This document shows, piece after piece, positions 4,395 to 35,903 of a stretch of DNA of 64,000 nt. The translations under genes were made by a program, and so were the position numbers. Within the stretch, counting starts at the first letter, position 1, and each line of letters begins with the position of its first letter. A model generated the notes under the pieces. It searched no databases. It was given only the letters and a program-made list of their open reading frames with translations, and had not been told where the DNA came from. The stretch comes from Octopus sinensis (taxonomy: Eukaryota): assembly GCF_006345805.1 (NCBI RefSeq), contig NC_043002.1, positions 15,438,001 through 15,502,000 of the forward strand, written 5' to 3'.

Positions 4395-4597
4395 TATATA
4401 TATATATATTATATATATATGTATATATGTATGTATGTATGTATATAAGTATAAGTAAAAATACATAATTAGAATTCTCGTTCGGATACACTATTTTGCC
4501 CTTTCGTAGTAACATTGGAAATATTACTACTTGTAAATATTTCATAAATATAAACTTACAATCACTGAACATATAAACGCCAGTGTTACATTGCACA

Positions 4598-4633
<36 letters not shown>

Positions 4634-5911
4634 AGGAATGGATTGAAGAAATTCTGGAACAGCCATTCCCCACTTTTATGACTTGGTGAAGACTAATTAT
4701 GTCCTCAGGTCTACGAAGAGAGTACATGCAAGGTAAAGCAACGGAAAAGGGGATTTAAAAGGGGAAGGAAATAAAATGTCTGCTTGTGTGCAATCTCTGG
4801 AAAATGCAACGAATAACAAAGCCCGCTTTTGCTCATTTGCATACTACATTCTTGTGCATAGCGCATTTACTAAACTACTAAACGTGCATATTCCTGAATA
4901 TATTTGTAAATAAATGATCGTGCATTCGGTTTACTATAGGTTTTATATGCCCACGAAGCCCGATGAATATTTTTCAAAGTTGACTATGTAAATTCATTTA
5001 CTAATTCATCCAGAAACACGAAGTCGTAACACCTCACTTAATACTTAATACCCGTTTAAGTACTGATGGGATATACGGATATGTAAAGTAGTAAAAAATA
5101 GTGGAAATTTTTTTACATGTATTTTTCATAAATATCTCTAGCTACGGAATTCCTTTCATTTTCTATGGCATGCACGCGTACACATTCTCACCATCGCCAA
5201 CACTCATAGCTGCATTATTTCTCTGTATGCATGAGTGTATAAATGTGTGCGTGTATGTGTGTGCGCGTGTATGTGTGTGTGCGGATGTGTGTGTTTGTAT
5301 GTGTGTGTATATTTGCGTGAATGTGTTTTCATGTACATATGCGTGGACTCGACGCAACTCGTTAGATGTTCACAAAGTAAAACTTTACTTATCAATATTG
5401 CTCACCCAACTAGCTCTTCAAAACATTCCTGATATTTAAGTTTGGTGTCTATTTTTGAACCTATCAATAAAAACCTACCTACCTACATTCGTACATCCAC
5501 CCATCCATCCATACATACATACATACATACTTACATACATACATACATACATACACACAAACACATATTCAGTGATACGGAGAAATTTTTCATATGGTGA
5601 AATTTTTATATGGTGAGATGAAGGGGCCTACTATCTCTAAATGAAAATATATATTTCTTCATTGAGAATAATTTGAACCCCTGTTATGCCGTAATTTTTA
5701 TTCCCTAACATATATATATATATTATATATATATGTATATATGTATGTATGTATGTATATAAGTATAAGTAAAAATACATAATTAGAATTCTCGTTCGGA
5801 TACACTATTTTGCCCTTTCGTAGTAACATTGGAAATATTACTACTTGTAAATATTTCATAAATATAAACTTACAATCACTGAACATATAAACGCCAGTGT
5901 TACATTGCACA

Positions 5912-5942
<31 letters not shown>

Positions 5943-7024
5943 CTAAGGAATGGATTGAAGAAATTCTGGAACAGCCATTCCCCACTTTTATGACTTGGTG
6001 AAGACTAATTATGTCCTCAGGTCTACGAAGAGAGTACATGCAAGGTAAAGCAACGGAAAAGGGGATTTAAAAGGGGAAGGAAATAAAATGTCTGCTTGTG
6101 TGCAATCTCTGGAAAATGCAACGAATAACAAAGCCCGCTTTTGCTCATTTGCATACTACATTCTTGTGCATAGCGCATTTACTAAACTACTAAACGTGCA
6201 TATTCCTGAATATATTTGTAAATAAATGATCGTGCATTCGGTTTACTATAGGTTTTATATGCCCAACGAAGCCCGATGAATATTTTTCAAAGTTGACTAT
6301 GTAAATTCATTTACTAATTCATCCAGAAACACGAAGTCGTAACACCTCACTTAATACTTAATACCCGTTTAAGTACTGATGGGATATACGGGATATGTAA
6401 AGTAGTAAAAAATAGTGGAAATTTTTTTACATGTATTTTTCATAAATATCTCTAGCTACGGAAATTCCTTTCATTTTCTATGGCATGCACGCGTACACAT
6501 TCTCACCATCGCCAACACTCATAGCTGCATTATTTCTCTGTATGCATGAGTGTATAAATGTGTGCGTGTATGTGTGTGCGCGTGTATGTATGTGTGCGGA
6601 TGTGTGTGTTTGTATGTGTGTGTATATTTGCGTGAATGTGTTTTCATGTACATATGCGTGGACTCGACGCAACTCGTTAGATGTTCACAATGTAAAACTT
6701 TACTTATCAATATTGCTCACCCAACTAGCTCTTCAAAACATTCCTGATATTTAAGTTTGGTGTCTATTTTTGAACCTATCAATAAAAACCTACCTACCTA
6801 CATTCGTACATCCATCCATCCATCCATACATTCATACATACATACTTACATACATACATAGATACATACACACAAACACACATTCAGTGATACGGAGAAA
6901 TTTTTCATAAGGTGAAATTTTTATATGGTGAGATGAAGGGGCCTACTATCTCTAAATGAAACTATATATTTCTTCATTGAGAATAATTTGAACCCCTGTT
7001 ATGCCGTAATTTTTATTCCCTAAC

Positions 7025-11650: not shown

Positions 11651-11737
11651 CATGTGTGTGTGTGTATGTGTATATATATATACATACATACATACTTACA
11701 TACACACACATACACACACACATATAAATATATATAT

Positions 11738-12780
11738 TTTGCATAGAACGGCGAAATAACCCACTGTAGTTGCAAAACGTAAAACTCTAAGTCATAGAGA
11801 TCACTACAACACTTTGGTTTAAAAACATTTAAAAAAATATATATATATAAATATATACATATACACAGTAATTTTCATTATCGCCGAAACGCACATGGTG
11901 CAAAAATAACTGAATCAAGTTATCTCCTGCAAGAAAGAAAAAAGAAGCATCTCTCCTGAAAAAAAATCCCGTAAACCAAAAAAAAAAAAAAATAATAATC
12001 CAGACCACATTGTTGGATTAAGTATCAATTTCATCTATTTCATATTTTATTTATTATTCTATTTTATCTTTCACTTAGGCCCACATCTTAGTTAAAGTTG
12101 CGATCGTCATTTTGTTTGTTTACATTTTCAATAACTGTTCTCGATATAATAATTTTCCAGATACTCTATCTTCTAATTAGCCTTAAGATTAAATTAAATA
12201 ACGTTTAATATTGATACCGTCAAATTAGCCTTAGGATTAAATTAAATAACGTTTAATAACGTTTAATAACGTTTTCAGCAGAGAAAGACGTGATTGCCTT
12301 TGCTCTGTGAAAAAGTTTGCATAGAACGGCGAAATAACCCACTGTAGTTGCAAAACGTAAAACTCTAAGTCATAGAGATCACTACAACACTTTGGTTTAA
12401 AAACATTTAAAAAAATATATATATATAAATATATACATATACACAGTAATTTTCATTATCGCCGAAACGCACATGGTGCAAAAATAACTGAATCAAGTTA
12501 TCTCCTGCAAGAAAGAAAAAAGAAGCATCTCTCCTGAAAAAAATCCCGTAAACCAAAAAAAAATAATTCAGACCACATTGTTGGATTAAGTATCAATTTC
12601 ATCTATTTCATATTTTTTTATTATTCTATTTTATCTTTCACTTAGGCCCACATCTTAGTTAAAGTTGCGATCGTCATTTTGTTGTTTACATTTTCAATAA
12701 CTGTTCTCGATATAATAATTTTCCAGATACTCTATCTTCTAATTAGCCTTAAGATTAAATTAAATAACGTTTAATATTGT
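11738..12780 (+). repeat. Direct duplication of the LINE 5' region (offset 578 bp)
   Basis: gcatagaacggcgaaataacccactg... at 11741 and 12319, near-identical for ~470 bp. Confidence 0.93.
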
Positions 12781-13670
12781 TAATATTGTTAATAATTATT
12801 GTTAATTAGCCTTAAGATTAAATAAATAACGTTTAATATTGATACACGTCAATCCTTAGGATTAAATTAAATAACGTTCAATATTGTTTAATATTGTTAA
12901 TAAATTGTTAATTAGCCTTAAGATTAAATTAAATAACGTTTAATATTAAAAACGTCTAATTAGCCTTAGGATTAAATTAAATAACGTTAATATTGTTAAA
13001 ATTATTTTGTAATTAGCCTTAGGATTAAATTAAATAACGTTTAACATTGTTTAATATTGTTAATAATTACTGTTAATTAGCCTTAAGATTAAATTAAATA
13101 ACGTTTAATATTGTTTTAATATTGTTAATAAATCTTCAGATACTCTATCTTCTAATTAGGCTTAAGATTAAATTAAAAACGGTTAATATACCCACACTCT
13201 AATATAATATTAACATTGCTAATATATTTTCAGATACTCTATCTCCTGATTAGCCTTAAGATTAAATAACGTTTTTATCCACACTCTAATATAATATTAA
13301 TATTGCTAATATATTTTCAGATACTCTATCTTCTAATTAGCCTTAAGATTAAATTAAATAACGTTTAATATTAATAACGTCTAATTAGCCTTAAGATTAA
13401 ATTAAATAACGGTTAATATTGCTTAATATTATATATATAATTTTCAGATACTCGTCTATAATTAGCCTTAAGATTAAATTAATAACGTTTTTAATAATTA
13501 CCCACACTCTAATATAATATTAATATTGCTAATACATTTTCAGATACTCTATCCCCTAATTAGCCTTAAGATTAAATAACGTTTTTACCCAAATAACGTT
13601 TTTACACAAACTTTAATATTGTTAATATTCTTTTTCAAGTACTCTATCTTCTAATTAGCCTTAATATCTT
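12724..13670 (+). repeat. Modular minisatellite array upstream of ORF1
   Basis: About 14 copies of (taattag)cctta[a/g]gattaaattaaataacgttt, plus 2 more at 12158-12275. Interleaved with modules cagatactctatcttc, cccacactctaatataatatt and aatattgtt. Confidence 0.92.
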
Positions 13671-13725
13671 CCTGTCTTCTCTCGAACATAATTAGATAGA
13701 TAAACGGATAGACGGATTATCCAGC

Positions 13726-14632
13726 ATGTCCAGAGCATGGAGACGTGACGAGCTGGATTTATTCGTACGAGCATGGGAGTGCGCCGGCGGAGATAGCCCT
13801 AGGAGGTGATTGCGGCTGCGCTGAAGAGCAGAGGCTACAAGAGGACAGCGGCTCAGATGGAGCGAAAGAGACAGGAATTCGTGCGCTCATATGCGCTTGT
13901 ACGGTCGCACATTGGCGCACTTGATGCCATCTTTGAGAACGAGCGGAGCAAAGATGGCAAGAATGGAGACGATGAAAGAAGTCACCCCCACCTGGTGGAC
14001 GCCCGGGAGGAGGTTTTGAATGAGAAACCTGCCCGGGAAGTGAACCCAGGTCCAAGTTCTCCAACCGGCAGCAAGGGCCATGGAGACGGAGAACCCGGTG
14101 AAGAGGTAGAGGGAGGAAGAAGAACTAAAAGAAGGACTGGAAGAGCTAAGGGAAAAGAAAAAGCTCAAGCAGGACCAAAGAGTGAAACAACCAGAAATAG
14201 AAGTGGAACCGCAAAGGATGGAACCAAACAGCGCACACGGGTGTGTATGTTCTACTGAGAGGTTCCTGCTGGCATGGAAAGGAAGGTGCAGGCTGCCGCT
14301 TTGCACATCGGGGACCCTGCCACAGAGACACGAGGCAGATGGACAAACCATCAACACAAAGAAAAGGGATGGACCACGCACCACCTGCCCCAAAACGGAG
14401 GTACGCAGATGTTGTGCGCGCCACAAACAGCCAACATGATGTCGAAAGAGCAGCTGCTGAGCAACAATCTTTTTTGTGCATGGCACAAAAGATTGTACAG
14501 CAGCTGACCTGGCTTCATCAAACCCAAGCCCGCAGGTGGGACTACCCACTATATACCAGACCACCACAGCAAACAGACACAGGATGGACACCGCCGGCAA
14601 CAACGTACACCTCACCTCGATACTCCTACTGA
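13726..14632 (+). pseudogene. LINE ORF1 (Myb/trihelix-like N-terminus, basic linker, CCCH finger), two apparent 1-nt frameshifts
   Basis: MSRAWRRDELDLFVRAWECAGGDS/EVIAAALKSRGYKRTAAQMERKRQEFVRSY, then RVCMFY/LRGSCWHGKEGAGCRFAH when frames are joined at ~13800 and ~14255. Confidence 0.75.
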
Positions 14633-17563
14633 ACATCAGAGGACTGCAAACACTCAGTAACAGGACAAAGATCCCGTTCCTGAGAGACTTTGTTGCATGC
14701 AATCAAGCCTTATGCATAGCACTTACAGAAACGCACCTGAAACCGGACATAGCAGATGCGGAGTTACACATACCACAGTATGCTGTACTACGGACCGACA
14801 GGAAAGAAAGGAGTCATGGAGGTGTTGCTATGTACATCCGTGAGGACCTCACACCCCAGGTCCTCTTGTCATACTCAAACTCGGTGTGTGACACACTAAT
14901 TGTACATATGGCAACTTGATGTAGTTGTGTGTGCTACATATCGCCCTCCAGATGCCCCAAGCCATGTGGGCAAGTTTGAAGACTGCCTTATAAAAATAGA
15001 AGAAATTCTAACCACATTAGAACAACACATAGGTGTGCTTCTTATGGGAGACTTCAATCTGCCCAATGTCAGATGGCCCGAGGGCCTTTCTCTCCCAGGA
15101 ATGACAAGATGTGAACGAGGACAGGCGAGGTCCCTCCTGAACCTCATCAACACCCTGTACATGGAGCAGGTAATACTCCAACCAACCAGGGCAGGTAACA
15201 CACTGGATCTCTGCTTCACAAATGACATGGATCTCATCCATAATGTGAAAGTGACACCGACACTACTCTCGGATCACAACATGATAGAGCTGACCATGTA
15301 CGGGCCAAAAGAGAGCACGGACATGCAGCCTACAAGAAACCCTCAAAATCTTTCCAGCTTGAACTACCATAAGGCAAACTGGAAACAAATTGAGAAAGAG
15401 ATCCTCAAACAAAACTGGCCTAAATGTCTCTCCTCGCCAGACATCGACGTGAAACTTCAACAATTCATGTCTGTAATGCAAGCCATATGCTACAAATGTG
15501 TCCCAGAGAGAAAGGCCACTGTACACAAGAACAAAATCCCCAGAGAGAGGAAAATTTTAATGAGACGGCGTACGAAATTTTCAAATCGCCTAATTGAAAG
15601 CAGTGAAAAGTCCCGCCTAAAAATAAAACTGTTGGAAATCGAAAAATGTCTGCAACTCTCCCATGAAAAAGAAAGAGCAGACAAAGAAGCCTGGGCTATA
15701 GAAAACATAAAATCTAACCCCAGAGCTTTCTACAGGTATGCCAAAGAAACAGCTACAGTGCACTGTAGAATAGGGCCACTCCTCGAAAAGGATGGCACAC
15801 TTACAGGAAAACCAATGAGGGTAAGTGAAATACTGAATGAGCAATTCAAGAGTGTTTTCACTCCACCCCTTGGGCATCTCCAAATCACCAACCAACCACT
15901 GACTTTTTACCACTGCAGATATAAAATCAGAGGCGGCGACGATAGATTACATCGATATAAAGGAAGACGATGTAACCAAGGCTATAGATGAAATGAAAAC
16001 AGACTCAGCTACTGGCCCCGATGGATTCCCGGCAATCCTCCTAAAAGCATGTAAGAGAGTCCTAGCAAGACCACTGCAGTTCCTCTTTCAGAGCTTCCTT
16101 GCAGCTGGCAAACTTCCAGGAAAACTGAAGGAAGGTAAAATATGCCCCATTCATAAAGGAGGTAGCAGAGCGGAAGCCAAGAACTATAGACCTATCTCTC
16201 TGACCTCACACATCAGCAAGGTCATGGAACGAATAGTCAGAAGGAAGCTGATCACCTTCCTTGAAGAGAATGACTTGCTGCCCGACACCCAACATGGTTT
16301 CCGACCAGGGAGAAGCTGTTTAACTCAGCTCCTACAACACTATGACTGGGTGCTGAAACGGCTGCTCAACCACTCAAATGTGGAAGTGATATATCTCGAC
16401 TTTGCAAAGGCCTTTGATAAAGTCGATCATGGAATGATATGTCACAAACTGCGTGATCTCAACATAGTTGGAAAACTGGGAGAATGGCTTCATGACTTTC
16501 TGAAGGATAGAAGTCAGGTGGTAGTAGCCAATGGGGCCACCTCCATTAACACACAAATAGTGAGCGGTGTTCCGCAGGGCACTGTTCTGGGACCACTACT
16601 GTTCATAATGGCCCTCTCAGACATGCCCTCAGCCACGCAGAGAGCCACGATCACAAGTTATGCAGATGATACAAAAGTTTCACAGGCAATACAGAACCCT
16701 GAGGACACTAAACACCTGCAATGTGAGCTGGACGAAATATACAAGTGGGCTGAAAAGAATAGCATGCAGTTCAATGCTGGAAAGTTTCAAGCTTTATACT
16801 ATCAGCATGCAAAACTGAATGCAATACCCAATGAATACACTGGACCCGGAGGGATTGCAATCCCAGAGGCACAATCAGTGCGTGACCTGGGTATTCACAT
16901 GAGTGATGACGCGACCTTTCATGTACATGTTGCTAAACTGACAATGAAATGTAGACGGCTGGCTGGATGGATTCTTAGAACCTTTAGAACAAGAGAACAA
17001 GAAACCATGATGGTCCTCTGGAAGACACTTGTCCTAAGCCACTTTGACTATTGCTCTCAACTATGGTCACCATCCAGTGTCAAGTTGATCACAGAACTTG
17101 AGGCGACCCAACGAAGCTACACAAAGCCTCTATGCAGAATGTAAGCTACTGGGAAAGACTCAAGAGATTAAAATTATATTCCCTGGAGCGTAGGCGGGAA
17201 AGATATGCCATAATATACATCTGGAAGATCCTGGAGGGAAGTGTCCTGAACTTTGGCATCGAGAGTTACGCAAATGCCAGAACTGGGCGCCACTGCGTGG
17301 TGCCTAGGACTCCAAACTTGCCATCAAGATGTAGGACAAGATTCTGTGATAGCCTGGGCTTCCGAGCCCACAGCTCTTCAATATCCTCCCGAAGAACCTG
17401 AGAGACCTGCATGGGGTGGATACAGATGTATTCTAAATTGAAGCTGGATCTCTTCCTGTCAGGTGTCCCAGATGAACCAACTTCACGGCAGGAGGGGCAG
17501 ATGAGGGCAGCTGCATCGAACTCTCTCATGCACCAAATAGCAGTTGCTAGAAAGCCTCCATGA
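14584..17563 (+). pseudogene. LINE ORF2: AP endonuclease + reverse transcriptase, about four frameshifts
   Basis: APE motifs LLNIRGL, ALTETHL, GGVAMY, GDFNLP, SDHNMI. RT motifs KNYRPISL, QHGFRPGRSC, YLDFAKAFDKV, SGVPQGTVLGPLLF, YADD. C-terminal LYSLERRRER. Confidence 0.95.
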
Positions 17564-17734
17564 AGTGAAACCAAGTAGCAACACCAAATGGCGGTGCCCC
17601 AGCATGGCCACAGCTCATAAGCTGAAACTAGAATCAATCAATCAATCATATATATACATATACATATCCATACATGGGTACAGGGTTTCACCAACAGTAA
17701 ACGACATGGAAACAAAAGCATTGAGCCCAATACG

Positions 17735-18005
17735 TAAATAACGAGAGGAGCACATAGAAAACAGGAGATATAACACGAAGAACGACTTCATTCGGTTTCC
17801 TTGTATGTCTTCACTGACCTGTTTTTGTTCCAAACTTTTGACTCTCCATAAATCTCAAATTTTATTTTGGTAGTGATGTGATCAACTGTCTTCGAAGACT
17901 CATATTTTCTTTCAATGCTCGAAATGAGGAGTAGACAGACAGCTGACAACTGATGAATAGTCGTTCTTTGTGCTACTCATCCTGTTTTCCATTTGCTTCT
18001 CGTTG
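17735..18005. repeat. Imperfect inverted repeat, Penelope-remnant-like
   Basis: aacgagaggagcacatagaaaacaggag...aagaacgact (17740-17790) is complementary to agtcgttctttgtg...cctgttttccatttgcttctcgtt (17959-18004). Confidence 0.6.
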
Positions 18006-20660: not shown

Positions 20661-23600
20661 TTCAGTAGTTTTATTTTTATGTCGTGCTTTCACTTCACTA
20701 CCGAGCGCAGCTCTGTGTGCCGTAGGCACGTGCTGTGATTTGTTGTGATGCTCTGATGGTTATTGTCTGGAAAGTGTTCTGCGTAGGATGTGTGCAGTGC
20801 CTAGTATTTGTCTGAATATATTTTTATCATGCCTAATGCACCTATTATGATAGGAATTGTTTCTGCTTTTAGATTCCACATTCTGGTTACCTCTATTTCC
20901 AGGTCTTTGTATTTTGAAAGCTTCTCCATTTCTTTTAAAGACACGTTGTCATCCGCTGGTATTGATACATCAATTAGAAAACATTTATTTTCTTCATAAT
21001 CTCTGACAACTATATCTGTTCTGTTGGCCTTAATTTCTCTATCTGTGTGTATTGGCATATCCCAGAGTATGGTTGCTTCCTCGTTTTCTGTGACCTTTTC
21101 TGGTGTATGCCTATACCATCTTTTTTCTGTTGTTATTCCATAATGTTGGCATAGCTTCCAGGTTATATAGGTCCCAACTCTGTCGTGTCTGTGAATATAT
21201 TCCTCCCTAGCCAGGGCTGGGCAGCGAGAGATAATATGATTTATTGTTTCTTGTCCATCTCCACATATTCTGCAGTTAATTGTTATATTTCTTTTCATTA
21301 CATGTCTTTGGTAATTTCTGGTGGAGAGGCTTTGGTCTTGTGCTGCAATTAAAAATCCGTCTGTCTCTGCTTTGAGTCCTAAGCTTCTCAACCATTGTTG
21401 GGATTTTTCTTTGTCTATTTCTTTTGCATTTAGTTTAGTCCAGTATTTGCCATGAAGGGGCTTTTCTTGCCATCGTTTTATCATGGTTCGTTGCTGTACT
21501 ATTTTTAGTTTGGATTTCATTTGTTTTATAGCTTTTGTTGTTTCTTCTTCTTCTTCTTCTTCTTCTTCTTCTTCTTCTTCTTCTTCTTCTTCTTCTTCTT
21601 CTTCTTCTTCTTCTTCTTCTTCTTCTTCTTCTTCTTCTTCTTCTTCTTCTTCATATTTGTTAGGTAGTATGATTTCTTGTTTGTATTTGTCAGCTTCCTT
21701 AAATACTGAGAATCCTTTCTTTTATTTGCTCATGTTTTTCCGCTATTTGTATCAGTTTTCCTTCCTTCTGAAGTAGATATTTTTACAGTCCTGTGGTGGT
21801 TATTTTATAGTAGTTTTCCAGCTGTATAAGGCCTCTACCACCATCTATACGTTGTATATATAGCCTTTCTATGTCAGATTTTGGGTGATGCATCCTAGAT
21901 CCTGTCATTATTTTTCTTGTATTCCTATCTATTTTGGTCAGTTCATTTAGTGTCCAGTTAAGGACATTGTAGCTGTAACTTATAATTGGGACGGCTAAAG
22001 TGTTGATACCTATTATCTTGTTTTTAGCATTGAGCTCTGTTTTCAGTATTGATCTGACTCGTCGATAATATTCTTTTTTCATTTTCTCTTTCATTTGTGT
22101 GTGTTGTGTCTTATCTAGTTCATGGATTCCTAAGTATTTGTAAGTTTGGCTTTGGTCTAATTCTTTTATTTCATTGGTTTTATCTAGTGTGATGTTGATA
22201 CTCTTAATCAGTTTTCCTCTTTTCTTGGTTACTTTGGCGTATTTCTCTAATCCAAATTTCATATCTATTTCTTTGGTAAATCCATGAACTGTCTTTACTA
22301 GTGTTTCCAGCTGTTTGTCATTTGCAGCGTATAGTTTTAGGTCTTCCATATATAAAAGGTAGCTGATCTTTTTGCCGTAACATTTATATCCGCATCCAGT
22401 TCTGTTTAGCATATCAGATAGAAGTGACAGTACCAAGCAGAAAAAGAGGGGAGAGAACGTATCTCCCTGGAATATTCCTCTTCTAATGGGGGTGGCTTTG
22501 GTTTTCACAAGTCCCTATTTTTTGGGGAGCTGTAGCACTGTTTGCCATGTACTTTATATTTGTCCTATGTACTTTATATTTGTCCTATGTACTTTATATT
22601 TGTTGGTGCAACTTTCTTAATGGCTAGTGTTTCGAGAATCCATGTGTGCGGGATGCTATCAAACGCCTTTTTGTAGTCGATCCAATCCATACTGAGGTAT
22701 TTCTTCTTTCTGTGGCTGTCTTCAGTTATGGCTTTATTGATCATTATTTGATCTTTACAACCATCTGAGCCTTTGCGGCATCCTTTCTGCTCTTCTGGAA
22801 ACAGGTTGTTTTCGTCCAGGTGCTTGTTCAATCTTTGCGATATTACTGCCGTAAATGCTTTGTACATTGTAGGGAGACAGGTCATAGGTCTGTAGCTTTC
22901 TGGTTTTGCTGTCTCATTTGATTTGGGAATTAAGATGGTTTTCCCCTTCGTGAGCCATTCAGGTATTGTCTCTGGCTCTTCCAGTATGTTGTTAAAGTTT
23001 TCAGCCAGCTTTTTGTGCATTCCTGTTAGATATTTCAACCAGAAGTTGGGGATCTTGTCATGCCCAGGTGCCTTCCAGTTGCTTAGCCTTTGCAGTGCAT
23101 GGGTGACCTCTTCCGTTGTTATGGGGGTCCAAAGTTGTTCAGATGCTGAGTTTGTTGTTTTAATACTCCTTTTTTTTGGTTGTTCGTTCGCCGACCATAT
23201 TTCTCTCCAGAATTCTTCCACTTCTTCTGCCGTTGGTGCTGCAGTGATTTCTATTATATTTTTACCAAGTTCTTGGTAGAACTTTTTGGAGTTTGGAGTT
23301 GAACAGTTTGATTTGTTCGAAGAAACGTTGGCGTTTCTCGTACCGGCGGATCCTTTGTGCTTTGGCAAGGATATCTTGCTTCAGCTTTTCTTTTATCTGA
23401 GGTAAATCTTTTTCTGTGGTGTTGTATTTGCGAAGTATTTTTGTTTTCTTTTTGTTGCTCAGTAGCGTTGATTGTCTACTGATTTCATTAAGAATCGACA
23501 GATCTTTTCTCATCTTTAGTATTTTGTTTTGGATGTTATTTATCCACCGGGTTTGTTTGGGTTGTGTTACTCCTGTTTGAATGGGTTTGAGTGTGTATCC

Positions 23601-35551: not shown

Positions 35552-35903
35552 ATTTACATTTCATTTTCATCTAGTGTCAGCTCACGGGTTGTGGCCATGC
35601 TGGGGCCCCGCCATTGGATGTTGCTACGTGATTTTACTTCATGAATGCTTTTTAGCAATTGACATTTGGTGCATGAGAGAGTTTGATGCAGCTGCCCTCA
35701 TCTGCACCTCCTGCCGTGAAGTTGGTTCATCAGGGACACCTGACATAAAGAGGTCCAGCTTTATTTTTACGACATCCGCATCCATCCCATGCAGGTCTCT
35801 CAGGTTCTTCGGGAGAATATTGGAGAGCTGTGGACCTCTGAAGCCCAGGCTATCGCAGTATCTTGTCCTACATCTTGATGGTAAATTTGGAGTCCTTGGC
35901 ACT
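35552..35903 (-). mobile_element. 5'-truncated copy of the CR1/L2-group LINE
   Basis: VPRTPNLPSRCRTRYCDSLGFRGPQL...VPDEPTSRQEVQMRAAASNSL matches 17299-17630. Tail is (GAAAT)-like rather than (AATC)n. Confidence 0.9.

Follow-up and report, generated by a model that had tools for sequence, protein, structure and literature searches.

An AT-rich tandem array in the 5′ UTR of a young octopus LINE and its origin from a single leader segment

The window, a stretch of 64,000 nucleotides from Octopus sinensis, contains a LINE of ~5.4 kb composed of a 303-aa ORF1, an ORF2 of the APE-RT type and an (AATC)n tail, all on the forward strand. The tandem array (12724..13670) is part of the 5′ UTR of this young two-ORF element. 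It is preceded by a unique leader (12270..12723) that is alignable across subfamilies and begins with a conserved 5′-terminal block (12270..12330), a candidate internal core promoter. On its other side lies a 55-bp tether (13671..13725), which is inherited from the 3′ end of an older CT-rich UTR. ORF1 (13726 to approximately 14632) contains a Myb/trihelix-like region at residues 1–60, a CCCH finger at residues 170–195 and a C-terminal helix. ORF2 (14584..17563) encodes the APE endonuclease and the reverse transcriptase, and the (AATC)4 tail (17632..17647) is followed by a TA run. Both frames are broken in the window copy, ORF1 by small indels; ORF1 comprises 303 aa in copy L078, and ORF2 forms a 1039-codon open frame in L072 and L073.

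The APE endonuclease and reverse transcriptase of ORF2, the 5′-truncated copies and the simple-repeat 3′ tail are the features of an APE-type non-LTR retrotransposon. The (AATC)n tail is found in 20/20 copies, the coding DNA of the copies differs from the majority by 0.46%, and the named homologues are those of Octopus vulgaris and Argonauta. TA runs are located before 44 of 53 5′ ends, and before 33 of 40 across all subfamilies, compared with a background of 9%, and partial repeats of the 5′ region occur at 5/53 5′ ends. With its short tandem tail, no RNase H and no C-terminal CCHC motif seen, the element may belong to the CR1 group. Zenon, which in the available text of PMC13343379 has no ORF1 and a poly-A tail, differs in both respects. 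Nested or tandem insertions are suggested by the ORF1 starts of L300 and L301, ~2 kb apart, and by the opposite orientation of the L286 and L315 elements.

The array in the window copy consists of 13 full cores and one half core (at 12854), arranged in units of 48–98 bp with an AT content of 79%. These counts agree with the original prediction of ~14 conserved cores ending ~55 bp before ORF1, as the last core begins at 13653, and 55 bp separate 13670 from the ATG at 13726. The palindromic words named there are all present as well (AATATT 20 times, TAATTA 15, AACGTT 12 and CTTAAG 10). However, although the array as a whole holds 69 palindromic hexamers against 43.8 in dinucleotide shuffles, a single unit of 48 or 87 bp shows no significant surplus (p 0.06–0.15 for 6- and 8-mers); the surplus in the array is thus due to repetition. 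Likewise, the counts of TAATTA (15) and ATTGTT (12–13) are due to the repetition of one AT-rich unit. The spacer modules, described earlier as shuffled, follow a conserved unit order with local gains and losses.

The proposed Myb and GT-1 recognition of the array depends on a minority derived variant, AACGGTT, which accounts for 49 of 805 units and occurs about once per copy at a fixed place. The two AACGGTTAA variants are indeed present, at 13178 and 13408, but YAACKG fits just one of them (1 match vs 0.8 expected); GGTTAA has two matches in the array. Two extra cores, missed in the original prediction, are located at 12175 and 12223, inside a partial duplicate of the 5′ UTR (11738..12269, forward strand) that is found in the window copy and contains a truncated leader. 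This duplicate has a TA run upstream and three 10-bp repeats at its end, and shares CGTTTT with the element start at the joint.

Short-read contigs from four runs, carrying three organism labels, span all 30 bins of 12255–14700 with a likeness of at least 90%; the array is therefore not an assembly artefact. Contigs X13, X14 and X18, from runs guessed to be RNA, bridge the 3′ end of the array and ORF1, which is not proof of transcription, and no GT-AG joints occur in the contigs of the four runs so guessed. An intron or splice cassette was rejected, as the array has four TTTCAG words and lacks a GTRAG donor. A hairpin or other structured RNA was rejected as well: the array shows no stronger folding than its shuffles do (z +0.98), and Rfam gives no match at E ≤ 0.1 across 11700–18000.

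The linkage between the array and the LINE, chosen beforehand as the refuting test, is found in three locus samples. Loci picked by the 5′ end carry 6–17 cores in 30/30 cases inside the 1.6 kb examined, starting from ~+470. Among the loci picked by ORF1 alone, 28/30 have 3–19 cores, and the other two are 5′-truncated close to the ATG. Loci picked by the array alone contain the leader in 30/30 and ORF1 in 28/30 cases, with some loci repeating one place. At first look, 159 candidates matched the 5′ end and 544 the start of ORF1, and 40 of each were scored. The array is thus real and belongs to the LINE, and the co-occurrence rules out an independent satellite or an unrelated insertion.

Complete arrays are present in 49 of 59 distinct copies and contain 9–28 cores (median 16) in 43 different unit strings, a count possibly inflated by indel errors of the assembly. 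Short derived units are located on the 5′ side, and long ancestral-like units on the 3′ side. The modules core, F and H occur at a ratio of 16 : 9 : 4, compared with 1 : 1 : 1 in the ancestral unit, a shift that depends on about three deletion events.

Sister subfamilies were found by protein search and the 5′-end pattern (89 matches; control 24). As judged from the comparison of their leaders, the array arose by ~16-fold amplification of a ~76-bp leader segment, of which the older subfamilies have only one copy, and it takes the place of their CT-rich tract. In L222 and L209, a single unit at +490–570 is followed by the CT-rich tract. Twenty further loci include six with one core, two with two cores and twelve with arrays, and L271 has a homogeneous run of 17 units of 76 bp. 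In the array-bearing elements, the last core directly adjoins the old tether. The array-bearing groups are the youngest, with within-group distances of 0.007 and 0.030 vs 0.040 and 0.048. The genome keeps a rare stepwise record of LINE leader remodelling, from one unit through a plain 76-bp array to a compound array, and the series provides natural constructs for asking if the number of units also tunes LINE expression in hosts other than rodents.

The presence of the core varies among related subfamilies. Distant subfamily B has a core homologue (20–21/23 identical); others possess a single core, an array of another kind or no core that can be recognised. The conservation against subfamily B is borderline (p 0.05–0.08 in four pairs), and family A itself gives p 0.29 and 0.46. 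The older form of the core is TAATTAG..ATTAAATAA, and the palindromes CTTAAG and AACGTT are late changes. This history is in line with the earlier suggestion that host homeodomain factors recognise TAATTA, insofar as TAATTA predates the rest of the core; the borderline conservation speaks against it. No binding word common to the A and B arrays reaches significance (p 0.08).

Other segments have been amplified in the sister subfamilies, with units of 42, 187, 133, 91, 87, 58 and 36 bp, whereas the C-type elements have no amplified segment and two C-type copies have no recognisable core. Subfamily B1 (L144, L149, L152, L153, L158, L223 and L235) possesses its own 42-bp array of 6–22 units. L223 and L235 contain 7–8 canonical minus-strand YAACKG words, which exceeds the number in family A. 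In L213 and L212, a 187-bp unit containing the core homologue is independently amplified to 8 and 2 copies. The related subfamily of L274, L286 and L290 has higher-order arrays with a 312-bp period and as many as 70 core-like hits within 3 kb.

The best candidate for a promoter is the DPE-like 5′ terminus rather than the array. In the window copy, the DPE-like word AGACGTG is located at 12286–12292. Intact copies begin with TCCGGTT, which the window copy lacks. The first 60 bp are 83–88% identical to subfamily B, vs 66–77% for the rest. The word is built into the loci obtained from the 5′-end pattern, and it is also present in other loci that were found without the word as query. Its offset from the TCCGG 5′ end differs by subfamily (24 vs 17–19 nt), and a DPE-type promoter is expected to have RGACGTGY at +28 to +32 relative to the start of transcription. 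According to the available text of PMC2377424 and PMC4748587, RGACGTGY is the DPE consensus of Drosophila LINEs (I, jockey, F, G and Doc). The octopus elements are alike in having an RGACGTG-like word near a TATA-less 5′ end that is kept across subfamilies, but in family A the final Y of the consensus is replaced by A, and the start site and spacing are putative. Most subfamilies (5′ ends of L201–L240) begin with ACTTCCGGTT, near the GGACTTCCGGTT start of zebrafish L1 in the accessible part of PMC5381506.

The array resembles the 5′ repeats of other LINEs. As far as the available portions of PMC5381506, PMC9022269 and PMC6454616 go, the L1 monomers of mouse and rat are likewise tandem 5′ UTR units of variable number with a short tether and ordered subtypes. 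Rodent monomers are terminal, 200–650 bp long and CpG-rich, and contain the start sites, and in the mouse type the element ends cluster at a fixed site within units. The octopus units are 48–98 bp long, AT-rich and internal, with the first core ~470 bp inside the fixed 5′ end of full-length copies. The expansion of L1 monomers is attributed to second-strand priming or unequal crossing-over in the seen sections of PMC6454616. The 5′ subunits of the vertebrate CR1 group, in what PMC13343379 makes available, also form arrays near the 5′ UTR of APE-RT LINEs with lineage-specific length and sequence, but those are 1–5 units of 100–500 bp in ORF1-less elements, compared with 9–28 short units and an ORF1 here. 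The octopus array is thus an internal, AT-rich, short-unit variant of known LINE leader repeats, with a traceable history. The literature search found no description of this LINE family or its array, and Repbase, Dfam and supplements, which lie outside that search, may catalogue the family. The octopus LINE paper PMC9115989, in its available text, describes an RTE element and leaves CR1 and Zenon unmentioned.

With regard to function, we tentatively prefer the reading that the array may act as a monomer-like enhancer, tuned by copy number, for host AT-recognising factors of the homeodomain type. This preference is based on the core being the part kept in the 16 : 9 : 4 ratio and on the youth of the array lineages. 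Transcription would begin ~470 bp before the array, at the DPE-like terminus, so that the array would be transcribed and would have to stay AUG-free, which fits the scarcity of ATG in the UTR. Template jumps during retrotransposition, or else unequal exchange, would add and remove units, and the TAATTA/ATTAAATAA core would raise the output. In mouse L1, monomers raise promoter activity, as stated in the part of PMC9022269 at hand. The many unrelated segments amplified in the sister subfamilies count against an enhancer, as a hot zone of neutral slippage would produce such variety.

Alternatively, the array may be a minisatellite under little or no selection in a UTR prone to slippage, a spacer constrained only to lack AUG and to hold the leader at ~1–2 kb, and carried along by a successful master element. 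This reading ranks close behind the host-factor enhancer. Amplification of many different units across subfamilies, with none in the C-type elements, and the hypervariable unit number are consistent with such a spacer, as are the chance level of palindromes per unit and the folding at shuffle level. Moreover, the array has no ATG, vs 7.4 in shuffles, and the 1456-bp UTR has one (at 12473 in the leader, opening a 4-codon uORF) vs 14.9 expected; this depletion is also found in UTRs without the family-A array (none in L214, one each in L231 and L201). Retention of the core above the spacers, its persistence as a single copy in distant subfamilies and the confinement of complete arrays to 9–28 cores argue against neutrality. 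If neutral, the array would be an ordinary UTR minisatellite.

The N-terminal region of ORF1p agrees with the predicted Myb/trihelix-like domain in its modelled fold, but the family-level sequence match falls below the cut-off. Residues 1–60 match Pfam PF13837 with an E value of 0.009 and 16.8 bits (cut-off 27), and six of 15 homologues match it at E ≤ 0.1. The model has pLDDT values of 80–95 over residues 1–70 and forms a three-helix fold with a long third helix. Its similarity to GT-1 (Z 7.6, a middling value below 8; rmsd 2.7; 58 residues aligned) is tied with that to SANT, RAD and LUX, and a Foldseek structure search found no match at E ≤ 0.001. Residues 1–60 carry a net charge of +6, and R40, Q44, K48 and Y56 are nearly invariant in the 15 homologues. 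Myb folds usually have Trp at the equivalent of position 49, where ORF1p has K/R. The CCCH finger located after this domain resembles that of Muscleblind.

The original prediction that ORF1p binds the cores through this domain and thereby regulates its own element appears distinctly unlikely. The modelled fold, its charge and its invariant residues are compatible with such binding, and the Myb type follows the array: the newer type occurs with arrays in 27/30 loci, all 27 loci with the family-A unit array have it, and 18/19 loci of the older type have 0–1 core. This correlation, however, stems from one branch. Furthermore, the minority status of AACGGTT, the K/R at position 49 and the lack of a significant word common to the A and B arrays speak against an operator, and nearly identical Myb domains occur in elements with a single core, with another array or with none that can be recognised as a core. 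In L292 and L299, a CT tract of the old kind adjoins an ORF1 with the new Myb, although both are 5′-truncated and an upstream array is possible; no full-length copy of this combination is present among the 40 scored of 370 candidates. More likely, the Myb-like domain would have a use common to all subfamilies; recognition of (TA)n targets, for example, would fit the TA preference that they share (33/40). The N-terminal Myb domain of R2, as far as PMC11204384 is available, similarly belongs to a non-LTR element with a target preference, but it sits in a single RT protein and binds the 28S target, whereas here the domain is predicted in ORF1p beside a CCCH finger. The accessible text of the ORF1 survey PMC4120745 makes no mention of a Myb, SANT or CCCH ORF1, nor does that of PMC11203168 mention a Myb or CCCH ORF1.

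The changes that separate the two Myb types are mostly A>G. On the stem branch of the array-bearing lineage, 13 of 59 A changed to G within ORF1 nt 1–240 (window 13726–13965; L291–L339), vs 1 T>C of 41 (p 0.007). None of 23 A after G changed (p 8e-4), and over 1.7 kb the branch has 26 A>G changes, none after G. Avoidance of A after G is the neighbour preference of ADAR, and clustered sense-strand A>G changes with 5′-G depletion are the pattern of its A-to-I editing. An ADAR editing burst in the founder of the array-bearing lineage is therefore the probable source. About ten residues of the Myb domain are recoded by A>G changes, and the domain changed at 16/52 synonymous and 22/188 non-synonymous sites; that synonymous sites are raised too points to a mutational, ADAR-like origin and away from an operator. 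If true, RNA editing would feed fixed protein change into a retroelement, and this side result may matter more than the array itself.

The same burst bears on a role at the RNA level, in which the array would have taken over from a CU-rich tract whose pairing with the purine-rich ORF1 start attracted ADAR editing, so that array-bearing elements would escape recoding. This role can coexist with the other readings, and we consider it very unlikely. Predicted pairs between the UTR and ORF1 nt 1–240 number 75–90 in six old-type copies vs 0–31 in five array-bearing ones; these were computed with 60 nt left out, and shuffles reach nearly equal energy, so that composition explains most of the pairing. 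In the family-A copies of today, A>G is not above T>C after duplicate removal (p 0.15), which fits escape without showing selection. The trees, from which 6/49 broken or chimeric loci and loci shorter than 1500 bases were left out, do not separate the order of events. A full chain would run from an ADAR burst in the founder, recoding about ten Myb residues of ORF1, through loss of the CT tract to a conserved cis-element multiplied 16-fold and read by the recoded ORF1p or host homeodomain proteins, and end in the youngest wave of the clade here. It appears rather improbable, and far less likely than the editing burst alone.

Other repeats are located elsewhere in the window. A 334-bp 3′ fragment of a related LINE (35570–35902, minus strand) is 87% identical to 17300–17632. 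Matches to RT and zf-RVT mark the remnant of a further non-LTR element at 20801–22412 on the minus strand, which is presumably R4/Dong-like. In addition, 4454–7024 contains a near-identical local duplication with a period of ~1.3 kb.
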